A stretch of DNA of 64,000 bases, from the NCBI RefSeq assembly GCF_964355755.1, contig NC_092675.1, positions 8,365,812 to 8,429,811 on the forward strand, in the 5' to 3' direction. Positions 4,521 through 28,080 of the stretch are shown here, one piece after another; position 1 is the stretch's first letter, and every line of letters begins with the position of its first letter. A program made the translations under genes and the position numbers. The notes under the pieces were generated by a model. That model was not told the DNA's origin and did not search any database. It was given only the letters and a program-made list of their open reading frames with translations. This stretch comes from Antedon mediterranea (taxonomy: Eukaryota > Animalia > Echinodermata).

Positions 4521-4629
4521 GTAGTCTATCTAAGCTTAATTCCTTGTGTTTAAAGAGAACACAATTTGATATGGTTTCGATAAGTACAATTTTCTATTAA
4601 TAAATGTTTACTTTCAGCACTATGATATC

Positions 4630-7600
4630 ATGAGTCGCAAGAAACACTCGGCGGCGTGCAATGCTCCATTTGGGACCGACGTTCAACCAACATGTGACAT
4701 GAAAATTATTGGGGGAAGAGCAGTGGAAATTCCTATGGAATCACCGGCAGTGAGGTAAACAAAATTCCAGCATTTTTTTCAGAACATTTAAATATACTAA
4801 ATAAATTATGCACTACAGTTCGTTATCAAATCCATCTTTCGGCCAAGTATCTCTACTGTGCTAATTCACCATCTTGAACCTAAACTACCATTTTGTTTCT
4901 TGAACAAATACTGTACATTCTTTATTTATTTATTACCTTTACTTATTTAGTGCAAAGAAGAGTGGCAGAGATTTACCTCCGGTGCATAACAGTCCAAAGG
5001 AAAGTCCCCGAATACCAAGCCAGTTCAACTACCAAACCTTTAATGATCTTTCACAGAATAAGCAATCTAAAGAACAGGTAGGTTTAAATGATCTGATTTT
5101 GGAATTATGATTGAAATCAACTGGAAAAGATAACAAAGAAGTCATGTCATGTAAATTTATTGTTATTTAAAGTAATGACATTCTCAGGAAGACGATTGTA
5201 TCATAACAACTGATATGTTGAGAGATTCTCAACCATACTTTATTTCCTTTTGTGTACTGCAAACATAAAGGCCAACTAAGACAGCGTCGTCGAGTTGTCT
5301 CGCCGGGAGAAGATTAAACATGTTTAAAGTTCTCGCGACAACCTAAAAACTATGCATATTTTGTCGTGCCTCATCGTACGATGCTGTTTGAGTTGGCCTT
5401 AACTTTACTCATTGTTCTTCAAAATTGTTGAAAATAGGGATTTTCTTATACCTAAGTTGGATATTCTTACATATTCTGAAATATATTGACAACAGAATGA
5501 TACAGATACAGATTCCTTTTCTTATCCAATATTAAATGGAAATTATAGATAGATAGATTCTATTATTTCGCCTAGTACTATTTGATTTTAAAAATACCCC
5601 TTTTTCAGCAAGAACGACTGCGAGCAATTGCTTCTAGAACATCTCCACCAGATAAGAGTAACTCCCACATACATGGTATTAGGTCAAGGTCAGGAAGCCT
5701 TCCAGGTGCTCACAGGTCAGTAGAAAAACTTGATTCACTTAAGCAAAATGTGTTATTTTGATTTTGCTTAAGCAATATAAACTTTGTTTACTTGCTTAAG
5801 AATAGTTATTTATACAGTATACAACAAGTAACATTTCATATGTTAAAGTTACCTGTGTAACTTTAACCTAGCCATGCATATCTAATAAACCAAAATAAAC
5901 AGAGAAAGTGACAAATTTGCACATGTAGTAGATTGCATTATTAAATGATCTTTAAAGGGCTATAGAAATTAAATTTAAGAATATTTACTTTCAGAATTCT
6001 TCCTCCAATACCCAAGTCTGATAGGCCAACCTATCCCTCTAGCGAGAACACACCATGTTCAACTGAAGTAATCTCACCAAATGAGATCCAAGACAAGTCA
6101 AAGATATCAATGACTGTTCAGTTACAAGGCATGCTTAAAGAGTTTGATCCAAATTGCTTTAAAGACATGTACAAGAGCCTAGCAGAGTTTGATCACAGGT
6201 TAACAGGCTATGTAAACCAAGCTCAACTCAACATGATAGCACTGCGGCATGGCTTACCTATTCCAACAACCATGTTGAGACTGCTTTTTAGTAGCTTTGC
6301 AAAGGGTAGTAACCCTGATATGGTCAATTATGAGAAGTTATTACAGTACCTTGCCAGGGCACAACTGGGTTCAGCCAAGGCTGAAACTATGCTTCATGAG
6401 TCGATAAACAGGTACATTTATTGGAATTTCCAGATTTAATCTTGTACTAACTTTTTTTATATTGGATCTTTTTGTTCCGGCGGTAATGACACTGTATCCT
6501 TTTCCGTGCTATGCTAACTTATGCCCATTCCTTTGTAGGTTCCTTCTCCTAGCATTACCTTTTTCCAATTCTTTTAAGTAGTTTTAATGGCTTTCGTATA
6601 TTATCTGATCCTCAACACAGTATTGTTTGACTCAAGCTTTGAGATAAAGAATTGGAAAATATGTATTACATGAAAGAATAGAAACATAAACTTCAAATCT
6701 TAGATTTTGTGCCAAATATATATATATATAGCAGAATATTGTCTGTCCACCAGATCAGACATAGTTCAATGATTGCCTGTAAAGCAGCACTTCTCATTAA
6801 ACCAAACCAGATGTTCTATTCTTTTTATCTATTTCTAGATTTGTGAGTGAAGTAAAGACTCTGGATGGTCCTGATGAACAAGTTTCCTTAGATGAGAAAA
6901 TGGCAAAGTTTGAAGCAATACTCATCAGAAATAAACAGATGTCGCATGAAGAAATTGCTTTAACAGAAAAAAGCCTCAGTCGACAACAAGAAGACTATCA
7001 ACAGATTGAACAAAGGTAATAATTGTTCTGCATGAATTTAATAAGCTACACCTGAGTCATAGCCACCAGTACTACAGGTGGTGAGGTTCACATTCAAATA
7101 GAAATAAGTGAATTTACCCTAGACAATGGATGAGTATTTGCTTTTTTCCAACTTTTAAAATGTAAAGGGAAAACACCATACTATATACAGTATAGCAGGA
7201 CTCTCTATGGTACAATTTGACACATTACTGTAAGGGAAAACACCAAACTATATATAGCAAGCATAGTACAATGCGACATGCGAACAATTAAAATTATTAA
7301 GATTGTTACTATAATAGTTCTTTCTCTTCTACAGTATCTTGCACTTACTACACTACTGTGCTACCAAATACTCCTCACCCCTCTTTAATCTGCCTCTGAA
7401 TTACACCCTTATTATCCTAGCTACATCTCTGAACAAGAAAAATATCATAACATGCAAAATGGATCTATGATTTATGAAGTAATTTAATTGATTGTTGTTT
7501 TAGGGAAAGTAGGCGTTCTTATGAGAAATCTGAAATTCAATCACCAATTATTTATAAGTAAGTAAAACCAGAAATTTTCCTTCAAAAAGCTTTATCTTTT

Positions 7601-10144
7601 AATTTCAACCATCCTACAGTACACAATAGCTATAGATTTTCTATTATTAGTGATTATTTATAAAGTGCCTTTCCAAAAGATAAAAGCGCTGTACAGAGAA
7701 TTAACAGAAACAATGTACAGATAAGATATATATATATAGTGTATACGGTATGATTTTAGTAATAAATATGATTCCACTTTCCTATGGTAGAAAACCAGTA
7801 AAGGTATTTTCTGAGCGAGATGATGCCATGTTGCTAATGTTAATTGAACAACAGATTATTCAAGGTAAAGAGGATAGCATAGATTTGGCAGAGATCAGTG
7901 ATACAATGTCAAGTTATGACAAATATAATGATGGAACCATTACACAAAAACAGGTAAATCAGCTTGCAGTAGAATTGTTGTCATTAAAATATTTTTTTCA
8001 TTGTGATATACTGTACAGTAACTTCTAGATAGCTGTCAATACCATTTTCTAAGACTACAATCGGAAAACAACAACTACTTACTAATACCATAAATGGTCT
8101 TATTTGCACTGTGTTCCTGTTTAAGGCACTCCTTGACCATAGTTATTGTGGTAGTACAAGTCTTCTCAGATAAGGACTGGAGGTCCGATATTACATCTGG
8201 CTTTTGAGCAGTAGGGGTTAACCTTTCTACTAGTGAATTTTGAGACTGAGTTGTTAGTCATTACTAACAACACAGCAGTTGAATCGCATTGTTACAGCTC
8301 AGAAACCACAAGAATGTCCCATTGGGAAGAAAAGAAATACATATTAGAACAGTTGAATAACACTAACTGTTTAACAATTAGTTTCAGGAGGTTTGTTTAA
8401 AGCATAGACTACCATTCCAAGGATCTGTATTGGAGAAGATGTTGATGCGATGTGACACAGGTGATTCAAAGTTAAGGTATATAGACACCATCAACTCAAT
8501 AGCAATTCCAACTGAAAAAATTACAATTTCGTCCCAGTTCACCATATTTTTTAGCTAGATTCAGTAACCTATTTGTAAAGTTACCTGGTTTAAATGGTTT
8601 AAATACTGTGTATGTACAGTGATTTGAGAATGGGTCAAGTAATTTAAGTTTGATTCTTTTTTTTGTCATGTTAGTTGGATAGCCTTCATTGATTTTCTAA
8701 GCAAGGTACAATCTATAAAAACATCGCAAGAACAAATGAATGGGTCCAGTCGTCCAGGCACATGGCCATCACTTGGTATAAGGAAGACGTATGAACAGGA
8801 TGAACATAATCAACCTCTTGCACAGAGCTTCAGGAAGGCACAAGAACAAGTTGATGCTCCATGGCAAAAGAAGAAACCCCTAGGGGTAAAATATATATAG
8901 ATATATATTCTATCTAGCTTTAAAGTAGAAATTAATTATACAAATATTGCCTGCTTATGGGTGTAATATAAAATTTGAGGGATTTATATTTTAGGTATTT
9001 CATATTCTGGTAGCACTAAGGACAAATATAGTCCTATAAAATACAATTCTCAATAATTTTAAACCAATAGAAAAGGCAATATTTGTAGCTAAAGCGTTTC
9101 TGTAGTCCGCAGGAATAACATGGCCTTATGGCTTTTCACCCTCCTTACCTCAACAAAGAATGACCATATCAATGCAAGTAATTACTATTTCATTGTCCTT
9201 ACAATACTGAATAATTCTTCTTCATTAATAAATTTACACTTAGCTTTATAACTACAAACTCTCTTGTTTCCAACCTTTCAGCCTGTCAGAAAATCGTCAG
9301 TAGAAGAGTATGTAACCAGAGATGACACACCATCACCTGCTATAGAGTCATCAAGTGACGGCGCAGAGGATGTCTACCAGCGTAAACAGCTGACTTATCT
9401 TGCCAAAAAGCATCAAGCATTGAGAGATCAAAGCCAAGAAATGATGGATGCTGTAGTAGACAATGAAGTTGAGCCATGGTTCTCTAGGTTTATGCACCTG
9501 GCCCAAGGATTGTACAACAGTGATAGTACAAACACAGGTAAGGTAGGCAGGCTAGGCCTATAATTTAATACCATAAAATAGTAGTTATGATGCTGCCATT
9601 ACTCTAAAGCTTAGAGTGCTAAAACTTATAAGTGCTTTCTATAATCCACTAGCAAAGTTTCACAAGTTAAGCTGTAGTTTGGTTGTTAATATGCATATAT
9701 ACAGTTCAATCCTGGCAACCACTGCACCACACTCCCTTGGCTTCAAATAGGACTATAAGGTTATCGTTCCTTTAATTGCCAAGCAAAAGCAAGAGATTTA
9801 GGCCTTCCAATTTCAAGTTCCAGGGAGACTTGCTGTAATTGGCGAGTTACTTGCTCTTGGATGTGTTTGTAAAAAACAATTCCAAAAATCAAAATATTAT
9901 AGCCATTTTTGTTTAGGCACGGTAAAATACTTTCAAGAAGATGATATTAAAAAGAAATAAATATATTTTTGCAGGTTACCTACCAAAGGAAGAAATGTTA
10001 CGCCTTGTAAACAACTACAATTTGATATACAACTTAAAGATACCAGCGGAGAGAATATATAAAGTGATTAACAGCTGTGTGGGGGTCAGAGGTCAAATAA
10101 TGATTGAACCAGTTCTTGAATCACTCAGGTTAAGTATATACTGA
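4630..10144 (+). CDS. C1orf87: C1orf87 (CREF) orthologue with EF-hand-like repeats; 11 coding exons: 4630-4754, 4951-5077, 5609-5715, 5995-6411, 6839-7015, 7504-7557, 7791-7953, 8382-8476, 8675-8885, 9281-9537, 9975-10144
   Basis: Canonical GT-AG junctions. Motifs MKIIG, FDHRLTGYVNQAQL...MVNYEKLLQYL, EPWFSRFMHLAQGLYNSDSTNTG and RLVNNYNLIYNL...IEPVL match my recollection of human C1orf87 (VKIIG, MVNYEKLL, WIDRF...LYLCDLSNTG, HNYNLIYNL, LEPAL). Confidence 0.85.
5269..5399. mobile_element. PIF/Harbinger-type MITE
   Basis: TIRs aggccaactaagacagc / gctgtttgagttggcct, flanked by TAA on both sides (5266-5268, 5400-5402). Confidence 0.65.
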
Positions 10145-11145: not shown

Positions 11146-12768
11146 TATTATATTACAGTATTTATTAATAACATACAGAGTACAGTATTTATGTATATGC
11201 CAAGAAATGTCTACAATATTGTATATATCTTTTTTCTTATGAAACACATTTTCTGTAATGATATTAATTTAATATTATGTACATTAGGTCTTTCAGATAT
11301 TGTAGTATTATTGCACAGTTTTTAAAAATAATATAAGCCTTGATTTGTTACCACTTAGACTTATGAAACAGTCAAAAGTGAATATAATATCTAATTTTAA
11401 TAAAAACATAAATTTCTAATCTTTTTGTTTGTTTTTTTTATATATAATAAAAGTATAAAACCTACAAAATGTAACATCAACTTGTCACTGTTCAAGTATT
11501 GTTAAGTGAATGTTTTAATACAAAGAACATATTATGTACAATATTAATGTATTTTCCATGTGAGTTATAACACATGGCGATAACTGTTTTAAAAAATATA
11601 ATACTCAAGTTTGTAGGCTACGTAACGCGGCGCTCTTGTATACTTCAATTTGATCATTTTAAATAATTAAAATGCATACTAAATTGATTTTTTAATACAG
11701 CAACAGCTTAAATACTCTACCAAATGATTAATTTAAAAGACCAAAAACCAAATGTTTACTTTTAATTGTTTAAAATTATTTCTAATAGTTGCATAGCAAC
11801 CACATCATTCACCAAATTGTTCATAAAGGATCAAATAACACCAGATGTTGAAAATGCACAAAGCATAGAAAAGCAAATATAGACTTTATTAGTAACCTGT
11901 TGATCAAATAAATCTGGATTGTTAATATGCTGTAATGAACAGTAGAGTAGAGAGTTCTTTAATAACCTGACAAGCATGTACTGTTGTGAATGTGAGTATA
12001 GGCCTATTTTTTAAATGTTTTTATTTATTTGCATATTATTCATGAGACAATATTTTAAACTTTTGTTCTAGTTTCAGTTGGTAAAATATTCCATTCTGTA
12101 TTTTAAGGTTCGTTTACCTTGAAAATTTTCCAATTTGGTGTTATTAATGTTTTACAACTTTGCCTACGGGTGCATTTGGCGTTGAGGCAGTCATTAAACT
12201 TAAACATTGAGGATAAATATGATGGTGAAAGGCCTTAATGCATCTGAAAGTTGTAAATAGTAGATATTTCCCTCCATCTTTCATTTAGTTTAACCCAATT
12301 AAGTGTTTTAAAAATATCATTTATTGGTGTATATATATCAGCGGATAGCAGAACTCTACCTAATCTATTTAATAATATTTGAAGCGTATTTAAATTTTTT
12401 GAAGAAGTAAATACAGCTTTATGTATTTAGAATATTATACTATAATGATTGTTTACCTCATGGAATTATTTGTTCCATTGCATTAAACAATTCATTATTT
12501 GTTTTATAACACACCTCCAAATTGGAAAATTTAGTTAGAAAGCATATTACTACAGGTTAATCGAAAGTCAGTCGACCACAGCCTAGCGTCTTGACTTGCA
12601 TGTGGTTGCTTAATCGATGTGTAACAAAAATAAAGGTGCAGAACAACATTTCAGTACTCGCGTGCATATAACAACATTGCACTCTTTATGACGCAATTAA
12701 GAGTGCTATCAAACATTTATTTAACATCATGTGACCCACAATCTTCTAATCAAATTACAAGCTACTTA

Positions 12769-12926
12769 AGCTCTGTCTACACTATCCATCTAGTTTGCAA
12801 AAAAATGTGATGTGCCCAAATATGGTAGTGATATGCTCAAATATAGTAGTGATATGACATCACCATGTCTATATATGGGCACATCATATTTTTTGTCACA
12901 TAAAGTTTAATAGTGTAGAAAGAGCT
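12769..12926. mobile_element. ~155-bp MITE family, copy 1; other copies at ~15766-15923, ~27279-27355 (partial), ~29842-29965, ~35472-35640
   Basis: TIR agctctgtctacacta(t)...tagtgtagacagagct with a shared core gatgtgcccaaatatggtagtgatatg found five times in the window; TA-rich flanks. Confidence 0.85.
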
Positions 12927-14380
12927 TATAGAAAGATCAAAACACTGTTGTATATATACTACTGAAGGGCATCATTTACATATACCTGTATTTTCTATTT
13001 TGTGCTCCTTAGTATGACTATGAGTATTTTGTTTCAAAATGCATACATATATTGTAGGTAGGTCTATTTTGTGCACCAAACATCTGTATAATGTGCATTT
13101 CTGTGCATTGGAAAACATACTTATTTTTGTGCATTTTAAATTGCAAAAGATAGTCATCCATAATTGAAAATAAATTAATAGATTATTCTTCATATACAGT
13201 GAATAAAAGTAATTTCAAATTGAATGGAAAGTAAAATGAAACCATATTTAATATGCCTTAGACCCCACTACAATACATCTACAAGCTGTTTAAGCTGTGT
13301 AGTGTTACTACAAATTAAATTATTGATTTTTTTTAGTCATCCACTACCACCACAAGCCACAATTTATTCATCACTGAATGCTTTTATTTAAATTTAGATA
13401 ATTATTCATATTTCTCATCTGTATGAAATTGGATATAGAATTGTTGTTTAATATTCAGTCAGACAATTTATATTCTGTGCACGTATCGGTTTGCTTCGGT
13501 ATAATTTTACAGCCTAGTTTTTTTTCCTCACTGCAGTTTATATAACATTCAATTTAATGGATGGATTCTATTTTAAAAATCTTCCCCCACGCCAAACTTT
13601 TCCTCACGAAAACAACTCAAAATGTCAATCTTTGATATAACCAAGGCAATCTATGCCTTAAAAGTAGTTGTATGACACTATTGAATAATAAATACATATA
13701 TTTTTAGAATTTAATTACTATTCTCTGTATGTTGCATGTCATAAGACCATGTTATCCAAATATAACAAATATATTAACAGGTTGCAATGATGCCTATTTT
13801 TCGAAAAAAATGTTTTAATACGATATTATGTATTATGTATCTTTCATGTTTTTTTTCATAACCGGTTGTTATGCGTCTATGAAGATAATAACATGATATG
13901 TTCTCATACATAGCAATAATATTGTATAAAAAATTCTATATTTTGGCTATTTCTTTAAATCTCATAGTAGTTGAGAGATAAATACTAAAAATGTGTACTT
14001 TTCTGGATTTAATGTACTAATATTTCTAAATGTGCCTTACGATCATGTTATCATATAAATGATATCTATTTTTAGAAAGAAAAAAATCATGAGCTGTTAC
14101 TACACAAGGTTTATTTAAAAATTACTCAAAGTGTGGATTGGATTCAATATAGGCCTACGTAATTGTGTCCTCATCCCCCACCCCCACCAACTATTAATTT
14201 AAGAGTAGAAAGTTGTTAAACCTATGATACAGTTTACTTATAGAAGTAGATGCAGCTATTAAATTATTCAAATTTATTCATTTATATGTTTAGATTACAT
14301 TAATAATTGTTATTTTTATGTCACAGTTAACCTTTTTTTATACACTGTATTATATTAGATGATGACCGAATTATTTTATT

Positions 14381-17300
14381 ATGCAAGTTCTACTGATCAA
14401 ACGCTTTCTGCTTGGACTTGCTACAGTGCTCTTTCACCTGTCATTCGTTAACACATCTGGATGTAGAGATAGCGCCTGTTTTCCACAAACTGTAACATTC
14501 AGTCAAATCCCAACAACCTCCATAACAGTTTTACCACCAGATGTAACATGTGACAACTCTATTTGTAAGGTACTGTAGATAAAACAAAATTAACAATAAA
14601 TAATATGTATAATTCAATTAGAAACATAGAAATCAAAAAGAATTCTACCTCAATATCTATAATTAGAACTTACATTACAATAATCAATAATCAACTGAAG
14701 TATAAATAATGATGATCTCAAAAGACAATCAAAACAAGCTGTTGGCTGTCTGCTCATCAAAGTGTGTGAACAATGTTTGTTGAATTACAACATTACATTG
14801 GCAGCACAGTAATCACATTACAATGTCTCGGTTGGGGCAAATTTTACCCTTTAGATTGACAGAATTATATCCCAGAGAAACATCAACAGTATTGTACTGT
14901 ATTACTTGTCTGCCCATGTTTGCTATACATTGTACAAAAGGAAGAAAATAAAGAAATAAAATAACAGTTTATTTAAACTCCAAACTGTACTTCCCAGTTA
15001 AAGATAATGTAGCATTTAATTGTTTAAGTGTATATTTTATATTATATTCTTTTTAGATAAGTCCAATATCTGAAAAAGTTGTACCAGAATTAATAATTGA
15101 CAATGAAGGAGAAGACACTACGACTTGGTCAAGTAAAATATGGTCCAGTACATCGACCATTCCAGAGGTCATCATTACTGTAGATCTCGAAAAAGACCAC
15201 AGTTTAGAAGATGACCTAACTATAACGTTTCGGTCTGAGCTTCCAGAAGCAATGATACTTGAAAAATCTAGCGACTACGGAGAAACATGGAACACTTTAC
15301 AATTTTACTCAACAGATTGTTTTAAAGATTTTTCAGTGAATGAAAGTTCTCGTAGCTCTGATGTTCAAAAGACTACAGATGTGTTATGTGTTAATCCATT
15401 TCAAAATCAAATTGACAATGGTGTACAGTATGTTTATTTCTTGGTTACGCAAAGGTTTGAGTTGCTTTCACCAGGCTTGTCAAATCCAGAAGAGCTTTTT
15501 ACGGGTTTAGAGGAGGATGTTGCATTAAGAGAATTCTTAAGCCTTACGAATCTAAGACTGAGGTTGTCTAGACCTACATTTAAAAATCAAACCAGTTTTG
15601 ATCCAGGAAACACATCAATGATGTATCATACAGCTCAATACGCAATTTCAAACATTGAGACTATCTTAAGGTATTTACAGAATTCTAACACTACTTCTTC
15701 TGATGTCAACCAAACATCTCTAAAGCTGACCTTCCACATAAATAATTCTAAAAATACTGTACTAGAGCTCTGTCTACACTATCAAACTAGTTTGACCAAC
15801 AAAAATTGTGGTGTGTCCAATGGTAGTGATATGCTTAAATATGGTAGTGATATGGCATCATCATGTCCACATATGGGCACATCATATTTTGTTGTCACAT
15901 AAAATGTTATAGTCAGACAGAGTTTTAACGCAAAATCTCATTTTACAATACACATAATTAGTGAGGAGCCATAACTGTTAAAATTGTTAATAATAAAATC
16001 CTTATTTATTCCAAAACATTTAACAATAAATGTTATGCTAAGAAATATATTTACTATAGTAAAACCTAACATGAAAATTATTTACTATAGTAAATATAAA
16101 TATACATTTTCTTTCTTTTCTTTATAATTTTCAGTTGCAACTGTAATCTACATGGCAACTACTGTGATTTAAAAGATGGTGAATTGTCTTGTCAATGTCA
16201 ACATAACACAGAGGGACGGGACTGCCAAAAGTGTTTACCCACCTATGATCTTGTGCCATGGCAACCGGGATCTTTTTTACCAGTCACTAAAGGTACTGCC
16301 AACAGCTGCAAATGTAAGTTTACAACTAAAGTCTCCCTGTATATTGAATTTAGTGGTGTTGTGTTGAGAAAAAAAGTGATTTGCATAAAATATGTGACTT
16401 GGCAGCCATTAGATCATTCACCCAATATTGAAAAAAAATATTTCTTTTTCTCCATAATACTCTTATAGAATACAATTTTACATACAATGAATGCAATTAT
16501 AAAAGGCTAGTTTGAATAATTTTCAGTTTTATAAATAAACAAAAAAAACCAAAAAACTGTTTGCTATTATTACGAGTGAAAACTTGACAAACATAAATTG
16601 ATAATTAAGGACCGGGTGTATTATACCCATTAAATGTGATATTGATGATATGATTCAAATAACTTTAAGATTACAAACTATAGAGGGTGGTGTACAGGGT
16701 AGGAAAATATCCTTTGGGGCATGTAGTGAAGAGTTTTGGGAAAGGGTTCAATAACTTTTCCAAATTTAAAAACCCATAAAAACCATTTAGTAGTAGTCGG
16801 ATTTATTTTAAAGTATACATGAGATGAAACAAATGAACTAAATTATGATTATGATAAATTTATGGTTGGTAAAAAGGAATCATATCTGGAATTATGAATA
16901 TTTATATCATGTTATTTTTTAAAGATTAATTTTGGCTCAGCAAGCACACCCATCAAATAATGGATAAGTCCAAACTCTTATTGTGTATCAATGCATGAAT
17001 TGTTTGACAGCACACAAAATTCCAATTACATCACAATAAAGGAACTACTTTTAAATCTCACTATTCTTCCTACCATCATCTTTATGACAATGCTTACCGA
17101 AGCGCAACCAAACAATTCATTCAGGTATAGTTAGGTTTATTCCAGTCGAAAGACCAATCCACCTTGATAACGCTTTCGTGACACTTTATTAACATATGGA
17201 CTGTTTAACCAAAGATGTCTGTGAGAAGTTTAGTTTAAGATAATAGGAATTTATAAGTGTTTATGTTGGCTGTCAGAATGAGACACAGTTGTAGTAACTT

Positions 17301-20300
17301 TTCTTGCTGTATTATTTTGTATGGCTATGCATATTATTATTATTTTATATGTATTGGATTAACACACAGTCAACAAGGTAAGAAAAGTGGTTGTATATCA
17401 CTATACTAGAAATTATTTTGTTACTGACAATGCACAATTAAAAAAAAATATGTTATACCATATAACTACAGTAATTACAGTTATATAGGCAGACTAGAAG
17501 CAGGTGACATATAGCCATTCAAATACATATAGTATACATAAGATTCTGGAGTAAATCAAGAAAGAGAAGATACTGTGATCACATTGGTGAAATCAATGAA
17601 AGTACACTTATCAAACTTGAAAACTTGTTCACAAAATCAACTTAAATATCACCTCAAAATGTTTTAAATGATTTTGCTATTCTAATGTTCGTTTTCAGTA
17701 AGTCCTATTCAAACCACCATAGCATCTATACAAACCACAGCAGCAGCTGAACTGCTTCCTACCACCTCAATATGTGAAACAGAGCCATGTGAGAATGGAG
17801 GAACTTGTCAGAAAACAAACAATGGATTCTCATGTCAATGTACTGAAGCATACACAGGTAACATTTTTACATTTCTCTATTATATCTTATTGTATGTCAA
17901 TAAGAAAGTAAACAAACACTCTTTAGAGTTTACTAAGTATGCTCCTTTGTTTTAATATACAATAGAATTGTAACACAACTAATCAAAGGTTTAAGGCAAA
18001 TCTCCGCCGCAGTTGGCGCAAATGTAAATGGTCTGTCAGTTTATACATTTTTGTAGTATAGTCAGTAGCGTTACAGAGAAAAGGGTCTTTCACACCTGTT
18101 CTGGCACGGTTTCAGTCCGACACCGGCAAATCCAATCGAATGTCAATGTTTCGCTTTTACGCGGCTACGCGCATATCGATTGCCGCACAGCCGTATGGAG
18201 CGACGTGAAAACAAAACATTGACGTTCGATTCGCCGGACCGGAACAGGTGAGAAAGACCCTCAATACATTACTCTGTGTGTTCATGTTGAAAGGTAGCGT
18301 GCAAAGTTGGCTCTCTTCGGCTCATTCATTCATCAGTGGAAAATTACTTTGTTTAATTGATTGTTTACATGTTGAATAAAGTTACAGAACCAAAAGATGT
18401 GTGTGTGTGTGTACCTGTGCTGTATGTTATGTGTTGTATTCAAAACAAGCTAAATATAACAATTTTAATATAAAAAGAAGAATTGGATACAAGTAAATTA
18501 CCAATTCACATTTTTACCGGTAGTCATGCTTTTGTTGTTTAACAGGAAATAGCTGTGAGAATGCTGTAGACCCATGTCAAAGTAACCCATGTATGAGTGG
18601 TCATATTTGTACTAATGACAACAATGGATATATTTGTAAAGTAGAAGATGTAAGTACACAATAATTACTATCACCACATACTGTAAAGATATTAGCAGGC
18701 TTTTTAACAGAAGAAGCAACACTGTGGTATATAATTCAATTATTATACTGTTATTATTTAAGTTTCAATGACTATGGACTTCGTCAAGTGAAGACGTGTT
18801 TTATCTTTATTATAATTTAATTTAAATTCATTCTGGTTATACGGTACTTCCAGAAAGTGTCCGTTGCCATTTGTTATGTCTTCTGCTGCTGTTCACTATA
18901 AATTAAATTGAAACTTTTACAGTTTTTGCTTTATTTTGTGTTGAAAATACTGCAATAAATTTAGGCGAATAAATGATAAACTGATACTTTAACACTTATT
19001 TACATTACCTGTTATTGATTATTATTATTAAAATATAGTTCTATATAAAAGGTTGGATATTATAATGTATGCACTTTTATAAAAAAAAATATTTTACCAA
19101 CTAACTAACCAGCAAATAGCTTCTTTATTTTTTTGTTAATAGTATATTCAAACAATTGTTAATAAGCTTTAAATATGAAAAAAAAAAAAAATAATGGAAA
19201 TTCTAGAGCAAATAATTATTAACTTGGATACCTTTAAATGTCATTACCATAGATACACAAAGCAACATTTTCCAACATAATCACAAAATAGGTTTGTTGG
19301 GTATATTATAATAATACCATGGAAACGTATACAATTGCTTTGGAATTTAATTTTAAAAGTAATTTTTATGCATTTGTATTTTTTAACTATATAAATATGA
19401 ATTGGCACTATTCATATTTTTGTTGTACAGTATATTGATTACTAAAAGTTTTCTAATTTGAATGCAATGAAAGATGATAAACAGCAGTCTAGATTCTAGA
19501 TAGCATCTTGACTTACTGTACACTGTAATATTGATAAAAAGATAAATATTTTGGCATATATGGCGTTTCATACATTAATAGACAAAAATATATGCCGACT
19601 CAGCTGGTGGACATCAACATAAAAAAAGACAATAACTAGATACTGTACTTTGTATACACTGTCCTTGAATAATTTTGAAGTAGTATTTGATAAAGTTAGT
19701 ACTAACTCAAATACTGGACACGTTTTTTGCTCGCCCAAAATGGTTTCCAAATACAATTTCAATAGTATAAACCTTTTTAAAAATTCTGGTCAAAAAGGTA
19801 CACTGAAATGTCTGAAATAAAAACTCTGAAATCATACACGTGTTCCAACATGTAATATACAGAATTTTGAAACATAACCATCTAGCTTCTTACATGCGGC
19901 CTAGGTCTATTCAATTCTGGCAAGACGACCACAAACGGCAATTATTTAATATTTTGAAACATAGAGGAAAATCAAATAGAGAATAACAAAATAGAACACA
20001 ATCATGCTGACTGTTCAAAGTCTCTGTAAATCATTTGAACAAACAAGAAACAGGGAAACACTGAAATCTCTTGGGAAACATTTTCTAATTTCTCACTACT
20101 AGTTAACACATCAGATATGATACTGGAAAAAATCAATAACCAATCAATTTAAGATTGACAATATCTTGTAGGATTTCCCTTTGGAAAAAACAGTGATGAA
20201 CAGTTAAAATGGTCATATCCTAATGGTCATCTGTGATCTGTAGATTACTGATGTTTTTATGATCTGGTATTTCTGGATCTTTTATACTATATATGGTCAG

Positions 20301-23300
20301 TGCCAACCTAAACAAAACTATTGTATCTCAGGGATTAATTGTCTCCCAGGGATTAATTGTCTCCTGACAAACCACTTAATAATAACCTTGGAAATTCGTA
20401 AAATAATTTCCAAGGGAAGATTGAGGGGGCTTGCTCCCTCATTTTGTTAGAGCTTTAATGTTCAAATGCTTATAAGCCATGTGTAATTAAAATTTACCGT
20501 GAAATAAATGAAGCATGGTCCGGCCGTAGAGATAGAATAGCCTTCGGTTTTATTATACCTATACTGTAGGTCTAATCAGTCTGCCTTAAGTTTTAGTAGT
20601 GTACAGTATGTGACTGATGAGCTATAGCAGCTACTGTAGACACTATGGGCTAAGTACTCAAAGTCATAATCTTCAAAGTTATATATTACTGTATACTAAT
20701 GTGGCTACTTAAACAAACTGTTATTGATCCAAAAGAAAACCGTAAGATACATAGCAAATGCTCCTCCTTTATCCCATTCCAATCCTTTATTTTCTTTATT
20801 TGGTCTTCTTAAAATTCAGGATATTAACCATCTTCAACAAAGTGTTTTCCTTTATTCATGGCTAAACTCGATCCTGCCATCACACTTTGATGATTTATTT
20901 AGTTTCAATCTTAATTTTCATAACCACACTACTCGGAGCGCTAATTAAATACGTATTCCTTTTTTTAAAACTACTTCTTTTAAACATAGCATTAAGTTTA
21001 CTGGTCCTAAACTCTGGGATAACGTACCAGTTAATATAAAAAGTGCTTTGTCTAAGAAGAGTGTTTCTTTTAAATTGAAACGGCACCTCTTATCTAGTTA
21101 TGTTTAATTATCCTTTCACTCATTGTAGTTTTGATATTTAGTCTTTTCGGTACCCTGAAACTAAAAGTCTTCATTACTGTTTTTGTCCTGTTTCCGGTTC
21201 CTGTGTTGTCCTGTTTTATTTTTCAGTTTCTATGGGCTGCCTTATACAAGCTTCGCTTTCTAGGAATGTTGCCCCTCTTATTTTAATCATATTTACTGTT
21301 AATTTTTATTTTCTATGAAAGACAAGAAGAGAAATAAATGTTACTTTGATTGATTGATTGATTGATAATTAGTAAATTACAATGCTACAGTACTGTATGA
21401 TGACATAATGAAATGCAGTACAGTACTGTATGATGACATAATGAAATGCAGTGTGTATTTACACATTCACTCTACAATGAATTCAAGCAATTAAAATAGG
21501 CTCTTGGGGTTAATTGAATAAAAGTTCCTTAAAAAAGACTATCTATAATAATGATACATAGATATCTATATTATTATGCATCAGGTAAAGTAGCTAATTG
21601 AATAAGACAAATGTGGGTATGCTCTGACGAAAGATTTAAGATCTACCAGAGTATAACTTAAATGTTTTAAATGTACTGAGCACTGGTACAATTTTAATTA
21701 TAAGTACAGTGTATTATAAAGTAAAGTGTGTTCTACAGGTAAACCATAATTCCGAAAATATAATTTGGTGTACATTGGTGGAGCTCAATTCCTTCATACA
21801 CTTAAAACTTTTAGCGCCACCAATTTTTACCAGAGGTTAAAGGTCATTATGTCTAGATATTTTTAAAATGCATGTCTAATTAAAAATCAATACATCTGGT
21901 ATCAGTCATATTGTTTATAGATTGTCTATTTATATCTGTGTTTGATTTTGTCACTTTTTAATTATTCGTCACTAAGCTTTTTAATTAATCAATATAATAT
22001 ATTGAGCTTTCATATTGTAATTTAGATTTAAATTCTATGGCATTTAGTGATATGTTACACGTTTAGGGCATGCAAATATAATTAGTGTGTTTATCTGGTA
22101 AGTCAGAATTAAAATTGTTCTATAGGCAAATATTTTTATTTAGTAAATGTTTTGTAGATATTAGTGTTACAATGATGTAGTACTGTACTCTAATGGTATA
22201 ATTGTTCTATAGGCAACAGTTTTAGCATGATACGACTATTTAGTCTTTCTTTTAGAATGTTATACTGTAGTGTCACAGTGACATCTGTTAATGAGTAGTA
22301 TAATTTTGTTCAAACTTATCTGATATTTGAGTCATCTCACCGACTTGAAATCAAATCGTTTTTGTATTTTTGTGGATTAGTGAAACAATTAAAAATCAGA
22401 AAGAAATCTTCTTTGTTGGTTAAATTTTACTATTATGCCTCCTTTAGTATAAAATGCTTACATTTTTTAGATTATAAAAACACATTTAATTATTTCAAAT
22501 ATTCACAATACTATTAACCATTATTTATTATAATTTTTATATTTCTTAACAGGAAAGTGGTTTATCTAAGAAAACTATCATTACAATAGCAGCCGTATCT
22601 GGTGGTACTGCAGTGTTCATTGTATGGGTGTGTTTTATAATTTACTACGGAACTTACAGACAAAAATTGCAAACGATGAACCGCAAATCTCAGAAGTATA
22701 ATGTACAAACAGCTAAGGTAAATGGTCAGTCTATGTCCGGCCATTACACTGTAAGTTAAATAAAAAATATTGATAAAAAGCATATACCCCCCTCATCAAT
22801 GGGATTCTACCCTTGCACCATTTATCCTGCTTTAACCTTTGACATGGTGTAATGTTATTTTTTTTAAACTTTTAACCAGCTAGTTAAAATTTACACACAC
22901 CTATATATTACCCACTAACACTCATACTTGATACAGCTACTGTAATCTACACTGCATTTTAACTTAATATTATTAAGAAAAATATTTTGGCACACATGCC
23001 ATTTCATACGTAAGTACTTGACATTGTAATTTACAGACAGGATACCAAACATAAAGAAGATAGACAAATACAGTATGGCCTATTTTAATAATTATTCCAT
23101 GGTAATACTGGATCCTTTAACACAATGAAAGAGCATTAAATGAAATCTAGTTTACTTAAATATACAGTCTAGAACACTTAAAAGGGATAGCCATATTTTG
23201 GAAACAAACAAACCAAGTTAAAATAATCATTTGAGTTTCAAAGGTTCTTAAAAATGACTGAAAATATTTAGTAAACAAAGTTTAAACGGTATATTTTCTT

Positions 23301-26300
23301 ATTAAAATGAGCTGTTAAGCAAACAATATGGAGAAATTGACCTTTACTAATGAATCCTATCTGCATTAGTAAAATAACAAGTAATGAACAATACATTGTT
23401 AACAAAAATAGCCAAATTAACATAATTTAAATAGTTTATATTCTATTGTTCCCTTTTTTTTGTTGGTATTTTGGTAAAAATTACTTTTTCTAACTGCATG
23501 GTATTTTATTTACCGACCTTCCTCCAAACCTCAATTACTGGTCTTATTTCTACTCTACTATCTAAAAATTATGAATTACTATTCAGAATATTATATACTA
23601 CATTATAACAACAGTACTGTATATTAGTTTCAACAAAAGCTAACACAGCGCAATATTAGTCTATATCCATTTTCTAATACCCAAATATGCAAGTGCTTCA
23701 TTAACTTACAGTTATTATCATAAAGCAATTTTGCTATTGGCGTAATTTATATATAATATACAGATAACAAATTACTATAACTGTAATTTATAATAGCTAG
23801 TAAATATGAAAATAAAAGACATGATATTTTTTTTTTTATTTAAGAGCATTAAGCAATCGCAATTGCTTGGTGAATGAAGATTAAAACCAAATAGTAACTT
23901 CAAATTGTATGCAATTTTGTGTTTATTGGGTAAAGATATTCAACAGAGGGGTTTTAATATAATATAATAAAATAATAATAATATATACTAATATAAAATT
24001 GGAAAAGCACTTTTACTTTAATATTTTCATTAAAATAATAGAAATTTAAAATAACAAAAAATAAAGATAGCATTCTGTATACTTCACGCTTGTATAAATA
24101 TTATAAAATAAAGCAAAATCCTACTATTGTTATTCCAACCATAGAAGAGTACAGATTTGTTGATACCTGATGGTTTAAGCTCTGCAAGAGTGCATGAACT
24201 CCAAGACAAATGGAACATCAAAGAAAACAACCTGATGTTGGGTAAGCTGCTCAGAAGCGGCAAGTTCTCATATGTGTGCGAGGGATCGCTGAAAGAAGAC
24301 GATGATACCGTAGCCGAAACCAAAGTTGGTGTCAAGTTACTTAAAGGTATCAATAACACATTTTTAATGATCACAATCAAAAAAAATAATATTACATATA
24401 AATATAAAAACAATTTATAATTTTATTTTTATTATTATCAATGAAAATTTCAATTTAAAAATCCGCAATTCTGGCAAGATGTTATAAATATTTTCATAGA
24501 ATCTTGTTATGTATTGAAAATACAACAAAATATAAAACTTTTACATTTTGACTCATATTCTCCACCAAAATACACAACTTCTTGGCGTGTCCAATGGTGG
24601 GAATAATTGATTTGATTTTAGTAAATTCTTTTAATTGTTTATAGATGAAAGCGATGAGACAAGTAAAAATGAGATGTTAAATGAGTTTAGTATTTTGTCT
24701 ACTATTGGCAAACATAATAATACAGTACATCTACTAGGAATGTGCACCAGAGTACTGGAACAATCAAGTAAGTCAACAGCAAACCTTTTCCACAATCTGT
24801 GGCCTAATATTCACAAATCTTAAGAAATATATTAAAAAAAACTTAAGACACCAAAAAACACTTCATGGCGAGACAGAGGTCCAGTGGCTAACATAATAAA
24901 TATTTAAGGATTTGTCTTATGATTTGGTACTGTATTTTAATGTAAATTTGTCCAAGCCGAGTTGTGGACGCCGAGCCACTGGACCTCTGTCTCGACATGA
25001 AGTGTTTTTTAGTGTCTTAAGTGTTTTTGCAGAACTCCATTTGGTTGACTGAAACATGGAGTTTTTTCCTTCATAATTGAATGTCTATGCGATGGCATAG
25101 CAATTAATCAATCAAAAGATTAAGTGACATTGGACATTTAGAAGGCTTTTGCATATACAAAAAAAAAAATATCCTTTTCATCATAAATACAGTTTTATTG
25201 AGAAAAAAAATTACCTTTCCATGCCAGTACAGTAGTTGATATTGACTGAAAGTTGATATCAACTAACATCAATGTATCAATAAGTTTGTCTGAACAGTTT
25301 TAATTGTAATGCAATCCATTCTTGTTTCAGCTCAACTTTGTTTAGTATTGGAATACATTTCTAGAGGAAATATGCTGAGGATTTTGAGAAGGTGCAGAAG
25401 CAGGCGAAGGGACCAGCCCCCGATAGATGCCCTCCCAGAGGATGAACTGCTTGGATATGCTAATGATGTCATCCAAGGTCTCAAGCACTTAGATTCACTA
25501 GGGGTAAATTATCCTTTTTTATATTCAGACTATAGCATACAATTCATGAAAAGGTATCAGACCTGTGAGATTACATATTCAAATGAGTAACAATTTCTAC
25601 AATAATAACAAATTTGGGAAAACTATTCTAGCAACATTAAAAGCATCACAAATATAATTTTAAAGCATCCTGGTACCTGTTTTGATAAAAATTTGCTATA
25701 CATTTTCTCTATGTGTTTTTTAACATTTTTGATGCAGATTCCCGATAGCCACAACCTACCCTTAAAAATCCAATAACTCTGCGACAGATTAGAATAATAA
25801 ATAAATATAATAATTATTTCTAATGAATTATAAATTGTTTTCTCTAGATTCTTCATTTGAACATATGTGCAGAAAATGTTCTCATCACGTTCAACAATAA
25901 AGCAAAAATATGCGACTTCAGACGATCTGTTGAGATTCAAGAGCCTGAGCAATATATTAAGTACACTCCTCATCATGATGTAAGAATGCTATGGATTTAT
26001 ACAGTCACCTTTTTCCAAATCGAACTTTTTCAAAAAAGATCTGCAATTCTTTCCTACTGTTCAAAATGTATTATGAGAGACTTTCTAGAAAAAATACATT
26101 TTGTCACGTATGTGTTAGAAAAGTAAGATTATAGAGGATAAAAACGATTAATATCGTACTTGAAAAAAAATGTCAACTTGACATGATTGAGGCTATGTCA
26201 AAAGAGGACCATCCCACCTCCCTCAGTCAAAACAAGATTGAGCCTTCAATTGTTCCTTTTCTGCCAGACCAAGGGGTTTGGTATTATGAGAGTTTTAATA

Positions 26301-28080
26301 CTTACATATCTAAGACACCACCACTTTTGTATGTGCAATAGATATCAATTATCATAAAAATTGTGCAGAAAATAAAACAAGATGGAGAAGCAGGGACACA
26401 CCATGATATCCCATGTTCCACAACCGACACAGTTGAATTACACATTTTTTCTTCTATCATTTCAAAAGAAAAGCTTGCCATTACATACTATATGTATGAA
26501 TATAAATGAACAATAATTTCTCTTTACTTAGGAACAAAAGAAAAGGTGGATGGCATGTGAAACACTAGACGGAATCTACAACACCAAAAGTGAAGTGTAA
26601 GTCGCTGCTATGCTTTCATTTAATTTCATTTAAAACTTTATTACACAGTACAATGCTTTATAATACACCATAGTTTTTAAATTTAAAATATCAGATACTA
26701 ACTAGCAAAAATACCTGCCAGTGCCACCCCACACCCACACTCCCCTCGCCATCTAGAAATATTATGGCAAGATGGGATTTGAACCAAGCATGTCAACCAC
26801 AAACCTACAACGTCACTCAAAAATTATCTTTCTAGCAGCACACAGCAGTGTGTATGCTTCTGAGCTGCATGTAGTGTTGTAAAAGAAGTGCAGTAACTTC
26901 TGGGTGTCATTTTTAACTTCTCCATAAACAAATTCAATAATAAAAAGTATTAATTGTATTATTATTTATTTCATAGCTGGTCATTTGGAATGTTATTGTA
27001 TGAAATTGTAACATTAGGTAAGTACAGTACATTTAAGACACTACATAGGATATTATCAAGTAGACATTTTGAATTGAATTAATGTGTGAAATGCCAGATG
27101 AGATAGGCTTCAGTATAACAGTAGACTCATCATGAAGAAAAAAAACAACAAATTCTTCATTCTTCTTCTCTTTTATATGGTGTCACCATCACCAAACTTG
27201 GAAAGGAATAACAATAAAGTATGATGATAGTGTTGATGTGTACAGCATAGAGCCTTACATTACAAAACATTCTTCTAAAGCTCTGTCTATACTATCAAAC
27301 TAGTTTGACAAAAAAAGTGTGATGTGTCCAAACATGGTAGTGATATGACGTCATCGACAGTATACAGTATAATAAACTGTGGATTCTCAAAATGTCAATT
27401 TTTTGGTACACAAACATTAAAAGATAAAAGCATACCTTATCAAAACCATTTACTACTTGCTTCTCAGGTGGAATCCCATATGCTGATATCAAGATACGGA
27501 ACTTGAAAGAGAAGCTTAAGGAACACCATCGCATGGAATGGCCACGGCACTGCTCTCAAGATCTCTACAACCTTATGCTAAGCTGCTGGCATCGGCGTCC
27601 AGAAAGTAGACCAACTATCAACCTGTTGTCCAAAGAAATGAAGCTTTTTAAATCATCAAGCAAGGTATTAATACAAATTTAAATCAATGTAGTAATATAT
27701 ACAAAATATTGAATGTAAATTATTTGTATAACACATAAACTATACTATATATATCTATACTACAGTATACTGACAACCAATGACCTAACTAGGTCAGATC
27801 AATTGATAAATTCATCAAAACTGTGTCGAGCGTGTATTATCCCCGCTCAATGAATTAACATGACATACTTTGTTCGTCCATTGTCTCAAATCAAAAGCTT
27901 CCTAATAACAAATTCATAAAAAATGATTGCTTGTTTTTTAAAATAGTAAATTTACTTTTCTCCTTTTTTTTCTTTCAGAAAAACCTCTGTTTAAAGGACT
28001 ACCCTTTCCAAATGTATGTGGCTATCAGATATCCAGAGGAGTTTGATGATCCTATGGCTATTCAAGACTCATTTGTTTAA
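14381..28080 (+). CDS. Netrin-G-like ectodomain receptor tyrosine (pseudo)kinase, 814 aa; 14 exons: 14381-14569, 15057-15670, 16135-16313, 17699-17857, 18546-18649, 22553-22717, 24145-24346, 24645-24767, 25331-25503, 25848-25979, 26532-26596, 26977-27017, 27468-27664, 27979-28080
   Basis: All junctions are GT-AG with compatible phases, totalling 2445 nt. Order: signal peptide; LN domain (MILEKSSDYGETW..FYSTDC); LE (CNCNLHG..CQCQHNTEGRDCQKC..PWQPGSFLPVTKGTANSC); EGF (CENGGTC..CQCTEAYTGNSCE); TM (IITIAAVSGGTAVFIVWVCFIIYY); TK domain (VGVKLLK, RWMACE, SEVWSFGMLLYEIVTLGGIPY, LMLSCW..RP). Confidence 0.85.
15766..15923. mobile_element. ~155-bp MITE family, copy 2
   Basis: agctctgtctacactatcaaactagtttgac...tagtcagacagagtt; same core as the copy at 12769. 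Confidence 0.8.
18082..18261. mobile_element. MITE, Harbinger-like
   Basis: TIRs agggtctttcacacctgttc / gaacaggtgagaaagaccct. Confidence 0.7.
20700..21366 (+). mobile_element. CR1/L2-group LINE 3' fragment
   Basis: IQKKTVRYI..SHSNPLF..LLKIQDI..HNHTTR..GPKLW ORF2 C-terminus, AATAAA and a (TTGA)n tail at ~21347-21366. Confidence 0.85.
21388..21452. repeat. 33-bp tandem duplication
   Basis: cagtactgtatgatgacataatgaaatgcagt occurs twice in tandem. Confidence 0.85.
24841..25022. mobile_element. MITE/foldback with ~49-bp inverted arms
   Basis: acttaagacaccaaaaaacacttcatggcgagacagaggtccagtggct is inverted by agccactggacctctgtctcgacatgaagtgttttttagtgtcttaagt. Confidence 0.8.

Follow-up and report, generated by a model that had tools for sequence, protein, structure and literature searches.

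Does the crinoid Antedon mediterranea carry a gene that joins a netrin-G-like ectodomain to an intracellular tyrosine kinase, and if so, what kind of receptor does it encode and where did it come from? The question is raised by a locus within a stretch of 64,000 nucleotides of Antedon DNA (hereafter the window), in which a preliminary description had reported such a fusion. Here, we examine the gene model, its relatives in other deuterostomes and the possible histories of its two halves. The gene, with its laminin N-terminal (LN) domain, laminin-type EGF (LE) repeat, EGF, transmembrane (TM) segment and kinase domain, is real, as had been reported.

Gene structure and distribution

The gene comprises 14 exons and 13 introns, all of them GT-AG, and the spliced frame runs for 814 codons to a single terminal stop, reproducing the exons and the 814-residue product of the preliminary description. 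When AG and GT edges were picked at random, no more than 60 nt from the true ones, only 1 pick in 200,000 gave an open chain. RefSeq holds the same gene as XP_071953444.1 (Antedon mediterranea), which starts at residue 38 of the present model and takes a second donor at 22750 in exon 6, adding 11 residues. The encoded domains follow in the order signal peptide, LN, LE, Ser/Thr-rich linker, EGF, truncated EGF, TM, kinase and tail. The neighbours of the gene are a DUF5580 gene on its upstream side and a cadherin gene on its downstream side.

All features lie on the forward (+) strand and are given in window coordinates. The first coding exon opens with 5′ untranslated sequence (14359–14380) behind an acceptor AG at 14357–58; an RNA contig has its edge at 14359 and carries 39 further letters that do not come from there, which implies an upstream non-coding exon. 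Exon 1 (14381–14569) encodes the signal peptide and the start of LN, and exon 2 (15057–15670) the netrin-G-type LN proper (Pfam Laminin_N, PF00055, E 3e-29, and Foldseek). LE1 is encoded by exon 3 (16135–16313; EGF_laminin, PF00053, E 2e-8), the Ser/Thr-rich linker and most of the EGF by exon 4 (17699–17857; Pfam EGF; RNA edges at 17699 and 17853), and the end of that EGF with a truncated, four-cysteine second EGF by exon 5 (18546–18649). Exon 6 (22553–22717, with the alternative donor at 22750; RNA edge at 22553) supplies the transmembrane helix and juxtamembrane part; there is a single TM segment, at about residues 423–447, followed by a cytoplasmic part of about 365 residues. The kinase N-lobe, with a degenerate Gly loop and the beta3 lysine Lys534, lies on exon 7 (24145–24346; RNA edge at 24344), the alphaC helix with Glu551 on exon 8 (24645–24767), the hinge, a basic insert and alphaE on exon 9 (25331–25503), and the catalytic loop on exon 10 (25848–25979), which reads HLN for HRD and DFR for DFG. 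Exon 11 (26532–26596) encodes the P+1 loop and alphaEF, exon 12 (26977–27017) alphaF, exon 13 (27468–27664; PF07714, E 5e-12) the end of the C-lobe, and exon 14 (27979–28080) a tail with Tyr789, Tyr794, the PDZ-type end DSFV and the stop codon. Pieces of the Pfam PK_Tyr_Ser-Thr domain fall in order on exons 7–10 and 13; taken singly, most kinase exons score under the curated Pfam cut-off, and the whole RefSeq protein gives E 5e-61.

The fusion is annotated in nine species, covering crinoids, a sea star, a brittle star, sea cucumbers and acorn worms. Precomputed Pfam assignments give LN, LE and kinase together in Antedon, Anneissia, Ptychodera, Glandiceps, Saccoglossus and Apostichopus. The same architecture is present in Acanthaster and, from their sequences, in Amphiura and Holothuria. 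A narrow, lineage-specific fusion, as had been considered, is not supported; the fusion is common to echinoderms and hemichordates, and the receptor architecture has been kept since their split. A profile search of 1.84 billion representatives returned 1014 matches, and among the best 150 a kinase was found in three, all ambulacrarian.

RNA support comes from a run, X1, presumed to be RNA on its contig edges alone. Nine of nine readable edges of its contig pieces fall exactly on predicted splice sites, and the pieces on exons 4, 6 and 7 have one common depth value (52.8), as expected of one contig. The support consists of these edges and not of sequence read across the junctions, that of exons 3 to 4 included; the contig over exons 2–3 stops at the end of exon 3. 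Within intron 3 there is a likely alternative first exon (16930–17377), with an ATG at 17263 or 17278 and a donor (17377) that would keep the reading frame into exon 4. It is covered by an RNA contig (16930–17375) with 30 letters continuing elsewhere, and encodes a hydrophobic leader. Spliced presumably to exon 4, it likely yields an LN-less isoform of 520–525 residues, which would provide the inner module without the ligand head. The join point of this short form is identical in three other species, and in the models of five sea urchin species the LN part is absent altogether, leaving the short form only.

The RNA contig that ends with exon 3, the independent first exon between exons 3 and 4 and the short-only urchin models would all suit a misjoining, by gene prediction, of adjacent genes, one for a secreted LN-LE protein and the other, driven by a promoter of its own, for an EGF receptor pseudokinase. 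We regard this as very improbable, given that the join is in frame in nine separately annotated species and that the exon 3 donor is in phase with exon 4. Moreover, the short form of Ptychodera begins before LE2, within the netrin-G-derived part, and hence from an internal promoter; for this reason the short-isoform first exon was rejected as a relic of a separate RTK gene.

The netrin-G-like ectodomain

The preliminary description had assigned the ectodomain to netrin-G rather than to laminin or netrin-1, on motif parallels with netrin-G1. These parallels are borne out in alignment against the PDB, where 3zyj is the top match (E 1.5e-55), and a Foldseek search with the LN domain places netrin-G1/G2 at ranks 1–5. 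The netrin-G-type LN is followed by LE repeats, with no NTR domain. In a tree of LN, LE1 and LE2 (33 rows), the receptors form one clade (99/98) that joins chordate netrin-G at 96/98 (97 under a mixture model), outside the laminin-beta/gamma-like chains. The phylogenetic part of the assignment is weak without LE2: with LN and LE1 only, support for receptors plus netrin-G drops to 73/35, and to 67 in a mixture-model quick tree. LE2 carries the tree signal and, among receptors, only the three acorn-worm rows have it; the trees used were quick and LG+G4. A tblastn search of Antedon intron 3 with proteins from acorn worms and vertebrates found no LE2 exon. On comparison of sequences, we consider the ectodomain likely to be an orthologue of chordate netrin-G. 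The family had been called vertebrate-restricted; this should read chordate, as amphioxus and tunicate netrin-G exist.

Laminin-beta/gamma-like chains are the source group of the LN-LE head, both in PMC3516229, where netrin-G nests within them, and in our own tree (99). This nesting, the failure of LN+LE1 trees to resolve the node, and the occurrence in annelids and a limpet of membrane-anchored forms built on the same laminin head, which indicate that anchoring arose more than once, would fit an independent origin, with the head copied from such a chain within Ambulacraria and only resembling netrin-G. We hold this to be unlikely. In approximately unbiased (AU) tests, a grouping of the receptors with ambulacrarian-type laminin chains is rejected, if at a borderline p of 0.043, as is one that puts netrin-G with laminins and leaves the receptors outside (p 0.0135). 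Acorn-worm LE2 is nearest to netrin-G in all three rows, the receptor of Ptychodera shares 44% identity with amphioxus netrin-G versus 38% with amphioxus laminin, and the YPATDG motif of laminin chains is absent from the receptors. The chains themselves are secreted coiled-coil proteins with many LE repeats, and are encoded by a separate gene also in echinoderms; their long LE arrays, L4/LF domains and coiled coil were not found in the receptor.

As the likely sister group, netrin-G1/G2 (NTNG1, NTNG2) and the netrin-G of amphioxus and tunicates have in common with the receptors the LN-LE1(-LE2) head, a Ser/Thr-rich insert after LE1, isoforms that skip LE modules and a terminal EGF ahead of the membrane anchor, and the D-x-E...T calcium-site pattern of netrin-G, carried in Antedon by exon 2, is present in the crinoid receptors and in those of two acorn worms. 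The receptors differ in having no LE3, in having LE2 in acorn worms only, and in their anchor: no GPI-anchor signal was found after the terminal EGF, its place being taken by the TM segment, pseudokinase and PDZ-type tail. They differ also in loop I (NetrinG1 residues 81–90), which, according to PMC3230378, forms the conserved centre of the contact between netrin-G and NGL. This NGL-binding loop is deleted in both crinoids, in Antedon from exon 1, and is present, in divergent form, in the other orthologues, where the vertebrate motif is not kept; an NGL-type ligand is therefore doubtful. That intron 1 might contain a micro-exon of 39 nt able to restore the loop was considered and rejected, as Anneissia also lacks the loop and the RNA piece on exon 2 opens with two letters shared with the end of exon 1.

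A kinase domain without its catalytic aspartate

All features of the RTK layout are present: signal peptide, ectodomain, one TM segment and a tyrosine-kinase fold. The domain had been described as a tyrosine kinase, with the implication of activity; this is not borne out, and the term should be pseudokinase. The catalytic Asp is found in none of 12 orthologues, which have N, K, A or R instead, versus 29 of 30 other kinases; in Antedon the position is Asn641 (codon 25860–62), with the catalytic-loop Asn646 kept. Pseudokinases are defined, in PMC4718504, by the lack of at least one of the beta3 Lys, the HRD Asp and the DFG Asp, and the receptor falls within this definition by its missing HRD Asp. 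Also lost are two of the three glycines of the Gly loop, which has a family-specific Tyr513, the HRD Arg (mostly in echinoderms) and, in 7 of 12 orthologues, the DFG Gly. The kinase domain is nonetheless more conserved than the ectodomain (84 versus 62% in crinoids, 72 versus 56% in acorn worms). Tail tyrosines Tyr789 and Tyr794 are each present in 12 of 12 orthologues, and a C-terminal S/T-F-V motif of PDZ type in 11 of 12.

An active or weakly active kinase with a non-canonical catalytic arrangement would be consistent with the retained beta3 Lys, alphaC Glu, catalytic-loop Asn and DFG Asp, and with a fold that matches FGFR/RET kinases at a TM-score, by target, of about 0.9. HER3, according to PMC4718504, has an Asp-to-Asn change yet binds ATP, and weakly autophosphorylates without the Asp, so that ‘dead’ may be too strong a word. 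We consider activity improbable: the base position varies freely across the 12 orthologues, and the Gly-loop, HRD and DFG losses stand against it. The domain is likely an enzyme-dead co-receptor or scaffold module.

In a kinase tree of 42 rows, 12 of 12 orthologues fall in one long-branched clade (100/100), with hemichordates sister to echinoderms, matching the ectodomain tree. Nearest to them (96/94) are the invertebrate Tie-like RTKs (‘angiopoietin-1 receptor-like’), in a grouping with sea-star Tie-like, brittle-star FN3, amphioxus SAM and bivalve RTKs. The clade lies outside Ret and PDGFR/PVR in this tree, which has no vertebrate Tie, FGFR or STYK1. PTK7, RYK, ROR, EphB6/EphA10 and STYK1 are receptor tyrosine pseudokinases, and the tree was built without these families and without HER3. 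Unlike the receptor, the Tie-like and Ret/FGFR groups keep HRD and DFG and have HYR, FN3, Ig or cadherin ectodomains. PDB matches to the kinase have RET and FGFR on top, at about 35%, and a search of the ESM Atlas gave generic kinase clusters only. HER3/ERBB3 is, like the receptor, single-pass with a kinase fold lacking the catalytic Asp, and has the same Asp-to-Asn change as Antedon (PMC4718504); it differs in its unrelated ectodomain and in missing the alphaC Glu, and the receptors form a clade of their own.

From the exon structure, the domain order, the conservation in nine species, the loss of the Asp, the tail tyrosines and the PDZ-type end, we think it fairly probable that this is an ambulacrarian single-pass protein with a likely netrin-G orthologue outside and an Asp-less kinase inside, acting as a likely enzyme-dead co-receptor and scaffold. 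The LN head would bind a partner presented by an adjacent cell or by the matrix, and binding would cluster the receptor with an active kinase, be it of the Src type or a second RTK. With the beta3, alphaC, catalytic-loop and DFG residues that it retains, the pseudokinase probably still binds ATP-Mg, and would offer a conformational docking surface, as in HER3; the partner kinase would phosphorylate both tail tyrosines, recruiting SH2/PTB adaptors, and a PDZ scaffold, at a synapse or junction, may hold the complex in place through the end motif.

Origin and meaning of the receptor

Gain of the kinase on the ambulacrarian stem is slightly favoured over its loss in chordates. The history by loss, which we rate as a serious possibility though somewhat short of even, supposes a deuterostome ancestor with an LN-LE-LE-LE-EGF-TM-kinase receptor, which chordates truncated behind the hydrophobic segment, losing the kinase and turning the TM segment into a GPI signal. 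Such a history is compatible with the co-receptor mechanism and differs in history only. The end of netrin-G (an EGF, then two further cysteines, then a hydrophobic segment) is collinear with the EGF, truncated EGF and TM of the receptor, although this EGF alignment is short and EGFs are alike among themselves. Since laminin-beta/gamma-like chains have laminin-type repeats only (Pfam), capture of an EGF-TM-kinase unit followed by truncation costs two steps, equal to two separate gains. Against loss, word-indexed searches with the kinase found no chordate orthologue, the next-best chordate match being Ret at no more than 191 bits versus 303–608 for ambulacrarian orthologues; amphioxus, tunicate and vertebrate netrin-G all have a GPI-like tail, and LE3, kept by chordates, is missing from the receptors. 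Rather more tentatively, vertebrate netrin-G may be the ectodomain that was left when an ancestral deuterostome receptor, preserved whole in echinoderms and acorn worms, was truncated; if so, its need for co-receptors to signal into the axon would follow from the dropping of the inner module.

We could find no description of an LN plus tyrosine-pseudokinase architecture in the literature, in line with the earlier statement that no RTK family with an LN ectodomain is known, although the urchin short form may figure in the 2006 kinome papers and the supplements of PMC3516229 may include ambulacrarian LN sequences. Table 1 of the 2012 survey (PMC3516229) scores echinoderms and hemichordates as lacking netrin-G; the ambulacrarian fusion contradicts this and moves the origin of netrin-G, a family of synaptic adhesion proteins, to the deuterostome stem. 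Automatic names (mostly ‘uncharacterized’, also ‘FGFR3-like’ and one ‘Netrin-G1’) have concealed the receptor family. The fusion is a rare genomic change, usable to place Xenoturbella and acoels, and the receptor is a direct test case for the transition from TM to GPI anchoring. Where GPI-anchored netrin-G lacks an inner part, the ambulacrarian form has a built-in signalling tail, whose partners are approachable by pull-down.

Gene structure and transcripts

The receptor gene was rebuilt from the sequence as 14 AG/GT-bounded exons at 14381-28080 on the forward strand, with 814 codons and one stop, reproducing the exon set and frame of the preliminary description; random AG/GT chains around the same edges stay open in 1 of 200,000 cases. 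Pfam, run exon by exon on 13 of the 14 exons (exon 12, at 41 nt, is too short), returns Laminin_N, EGF_laminin, EGF and pieces of PK_Tyr_Ser-Thr in order, and a signal peptide and one transmembrane (TM) helix are predicted by hydropathy and an AlphaFold model (mean pLDDT 72; 80-97 in the kinase core, below 50 in the linkers). RefSeq XP_071953444.1 from Antedon mediterranea matches exon 2 at 100% identity; this partial model, annotated as 'uncharacterized', shares the domain set, begins at residue 38 of the rebuilt protein and takes a second donor, 22750.

Exon 2 is present in five sequencing runs, of which three were placed on the window; none is recorded as RNA, although one of those placed, X1, is presumed to be. 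Contig pieces of X1 end at exon edges, and the two other placed runs continue through introns. The X1 edges coincide with predicted splice sites in 9 of 9 computable cases, allowing letters common to donor and acceptor. The pieces of exons 2 and 3 have a common depth of 13.1, and an 823-nt contig has the exact length of 30 exon-1 letters plus exons 2 and 3; the pieces of exon 4, the TM exon 6 and the kinase exon 7 have a common depth of 52.8. This depth and the edges support indirectly the two junction regions singled out earlier for RNA confirmation, and the junction sequence itself was not recovered. That exon 3 splices to exon 4 is predicted from phase, the RefSeq model and the orthologues.

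A further X1 contig, at 16930-17375, continues for 30 letters that map elsewhere. Translation from an ATG at 17263 or 17278 would give a hydrophobic leader that reads in frame into exon 4 by way of a strong donor at 17377. Together these features mark a likely internal first exon (16930-17377, forward strand), and this exon likely gives a receptor isoform lacking LN. Short forms with their own leader occur in Amphiura, a holothurian and Ptychodera, joined at the same point, directly after LE1. Since the Ptychodera join precedes LE2, the promoter of the short form would be internal, lying within the netrin-G part. Isoforms that skip LE domains are known for netrin-G1 (PMC6408995).

Several other features lie in the window. 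Upstream, at ~5966-10143 (forward strand), is a gene with DUF5580/EF-hand-like domains, which we take to be C1orf87-like; a sulfotransferase domain exon (41755-42087, forward) and a cadherin-repeat gene (~44900-57100, reverse) that has a TM-like exon and an acidic tail lie downstream. A LINE-type reverse transcriptase remnant (PF00078) occupies 2243-4525 on the reverse strand, and a multi-copy fragment resembling it lies in intron 5 (~20700-21100, forward). A very high-copy short interspersed repeat is found at ~12766-12930, 15766-15870 and 27276-27320, two copies being intronic in the receptor gene.

Distribution and kinship of the ectodomain

Protein searches with exon 2 (16 matches among 856 candidates) and with the Ptychodera kinase (157 among 3622, best 120 examined; 11 of 1024 among shorter proteins), cluster look-ups and an LN profile against 1.84 billion representatives (1014 matches, best 150 examined) identified nine species with the complete LN-LE-EGF-TM-kinase architecture: Antedon, Anneissia (crinoids), Acanthaster (sea star), Amphiura (brittle star), Apostichopus, Holothuria (sea cucumbers), Ptychodera, Glandiceps and Saccoglossus (acorn worms). 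The proposed fusion of LN and tyrosine-kinase domains is real. Gene models of five urchin species contain the LN-less form only, which urchins appear to have retained alone. A kinase is present in three of the best 150 LN-profile matches, all ambulacrarian. In one protein model, an Apostichopus-like LN-LE1 head is followed by HYR, FN3 and TM without a kinase, reflecting either a chimeric gene model with an adjoining Tie-like gene or a second shuffle.

The ectodomain had been described as resembling netrin-G rather than laminin or netrin-1, and this holds: its best PDB match by sequence is netrin-G1, and netrin-G1/G2 take ranks 1-5 by fold, above netrin-1 and laminins. The rival that matters is the laminin-beta/gamma-like chain, a group within which netrin-G nests (PMC3516229; PMC10084454). 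From 52 aligned rows, 9 were removed as redundant for a quick mixture-model tree of LN+LE1 (43 rows), which places the receptors in one clade (98) within netrin-G plus laminin-beta/gamma-like chains (99) and leaves their sister group unsettled. Adding LE2 (33 rows, without distant outgroups and one mis-cut LE2 row) unites receptors (99/98) and netrin-G (87/73) at 96/98, or 97 under the mixture model; the same rows minus LE2 give 73/35. AU tests reject both receptors joined to ambulacrarian-type laminin chains (p 0.043) and netrin-G joined to laminins without receptors (p 0.0135), the laminin group labels of unnamed rows being our assignment by length and best matches. The ectodomain is therefore likely orthologous to netrin-G, a reading that hinges on the acorn-worm LE2. 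Table 1 of Leclere and Rentzsch (PMC3516229) gives netrin-G as absent from Hemichordata and Echinodermata. Two acorn worms and both crinoids carry the D-x-E...T calcium pattern, whose Glu is typical of netrin-G (PMC3409155). In the 52-row alignment, the two crinoid sequences show a deletion of loop I, which forms the conserved core of the interface with NGL (PMC3230378).

Four unnamed LN fragments, one long-branched, also place in the receptor clade. The amphioxus netrin-G and laminin-beta/gamma-like genes may lie on one chromosome, as both records give 20,681,859 for the longest contig. Other LN proteins are membrane-anchored: in Owenia and Capitella (annelids) and Patella (limpet), laminin-beta/gamma-like heads of LN and 5-6 LE are followed by a TM segment and a long, kinase-free tail whose last residues are G-S-L/M-V. 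The Patella vulgata TM form and a full laminin chain (labelled isoforms X2 and X1) have a common N-terminus; the former is a membrane-anchored laminin isoform, apparently not described before.

The pseudokinase and its origin

The inner part has an FGFR/RET-type kinase fold. The catalytic Asp is replaced in all 12 orthologues, whereas 29 of 30 comparison kinases keep it; HLN, HMN, HHN, HRN, YMN, HRK, HQA or HQR stands in place of HRD. Loss of the HRD Asp is enough for a pseudokinase by the standard definition (PMC4718504), so the tyrosine kinase of the preliminary description should be read as a pseudokinase. The domain still has its beta3 Lys, alphaC Glu, catalytic-loop Asn and DFG Asp; its Gly loop retains a single Gly and has gained a Tyr (12/12). 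The domain is more strongly conserved than the ectodomain and so is under selection. Docking features also persist: two tail tyrosines are present in every orthologue, and the C-terminus is S/T-F-V in 11 of 12, presumably a class I PDZ ligand.

In a 42-row kinase tree (without vertebrate Tie, FGFR and STYK1), the 12 orthologues form one clade (100/100) beside invertebrate Tie-like RTKs (96/94). Among the best 120 of 157 matches, orthologues score 303-608 bits and single-domain RTKs such as Ret at most 191, while a few two-kinase-domain proteins score high through summing, at ~30% identity; no orthologous kinase was found outside Ambulacraria among these matches. As the searches were word-indexed, absence from chordates is not proven. 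The C-terminus of chordate netrin-G (amphioxus, tunicates, vertebrates), comprising an EGF followed by two cysteines and a hydrophobic stretch, is collinear with the receptor's EGF, truncated EGF and TM. Kinase gain in ambulacrarians and loss in chordates require equal numbers of steps; gain is somewhat the more probable, since no chordate orthologue of the kinase was found in these searches and its neighbours in the tree are Tie-like.

A proposed mode of action

A receptor pseudokinase with a netrin-G head is real, conserved and apparently not previously described. No account of a netrin-G-headed receptor kinase was found in full-text literature searches, and the subscription 2006 sea urchin kinome/RTK surveys may list the short form. 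Neither 'laminin' nor 'netrin' occurs in the accessible text of the holozoan tyrosine kinome paper, nor 'Laminin' in one supplement; 'netrin' is likewise absent from the accessible text and supplements of the hemichordate genome paper.

The receptor belongs neither with active RTKs nor with GPI netrin-G, and the nearest precedent for its pseudokinase is HER3 (PMC4718504). Its LN head would engage a partner on the cell surface or in the matrix, and the receptor would cluster with an active kinase that would phosphorylate the tail tyrosines in trans. The pseudokinase, with ATP bound, would offer a docking or allosteric surface, and the complex would be anchored by a PDZ scaffold. On this reading the receptor would work in the manner of HER3 or PTK7.
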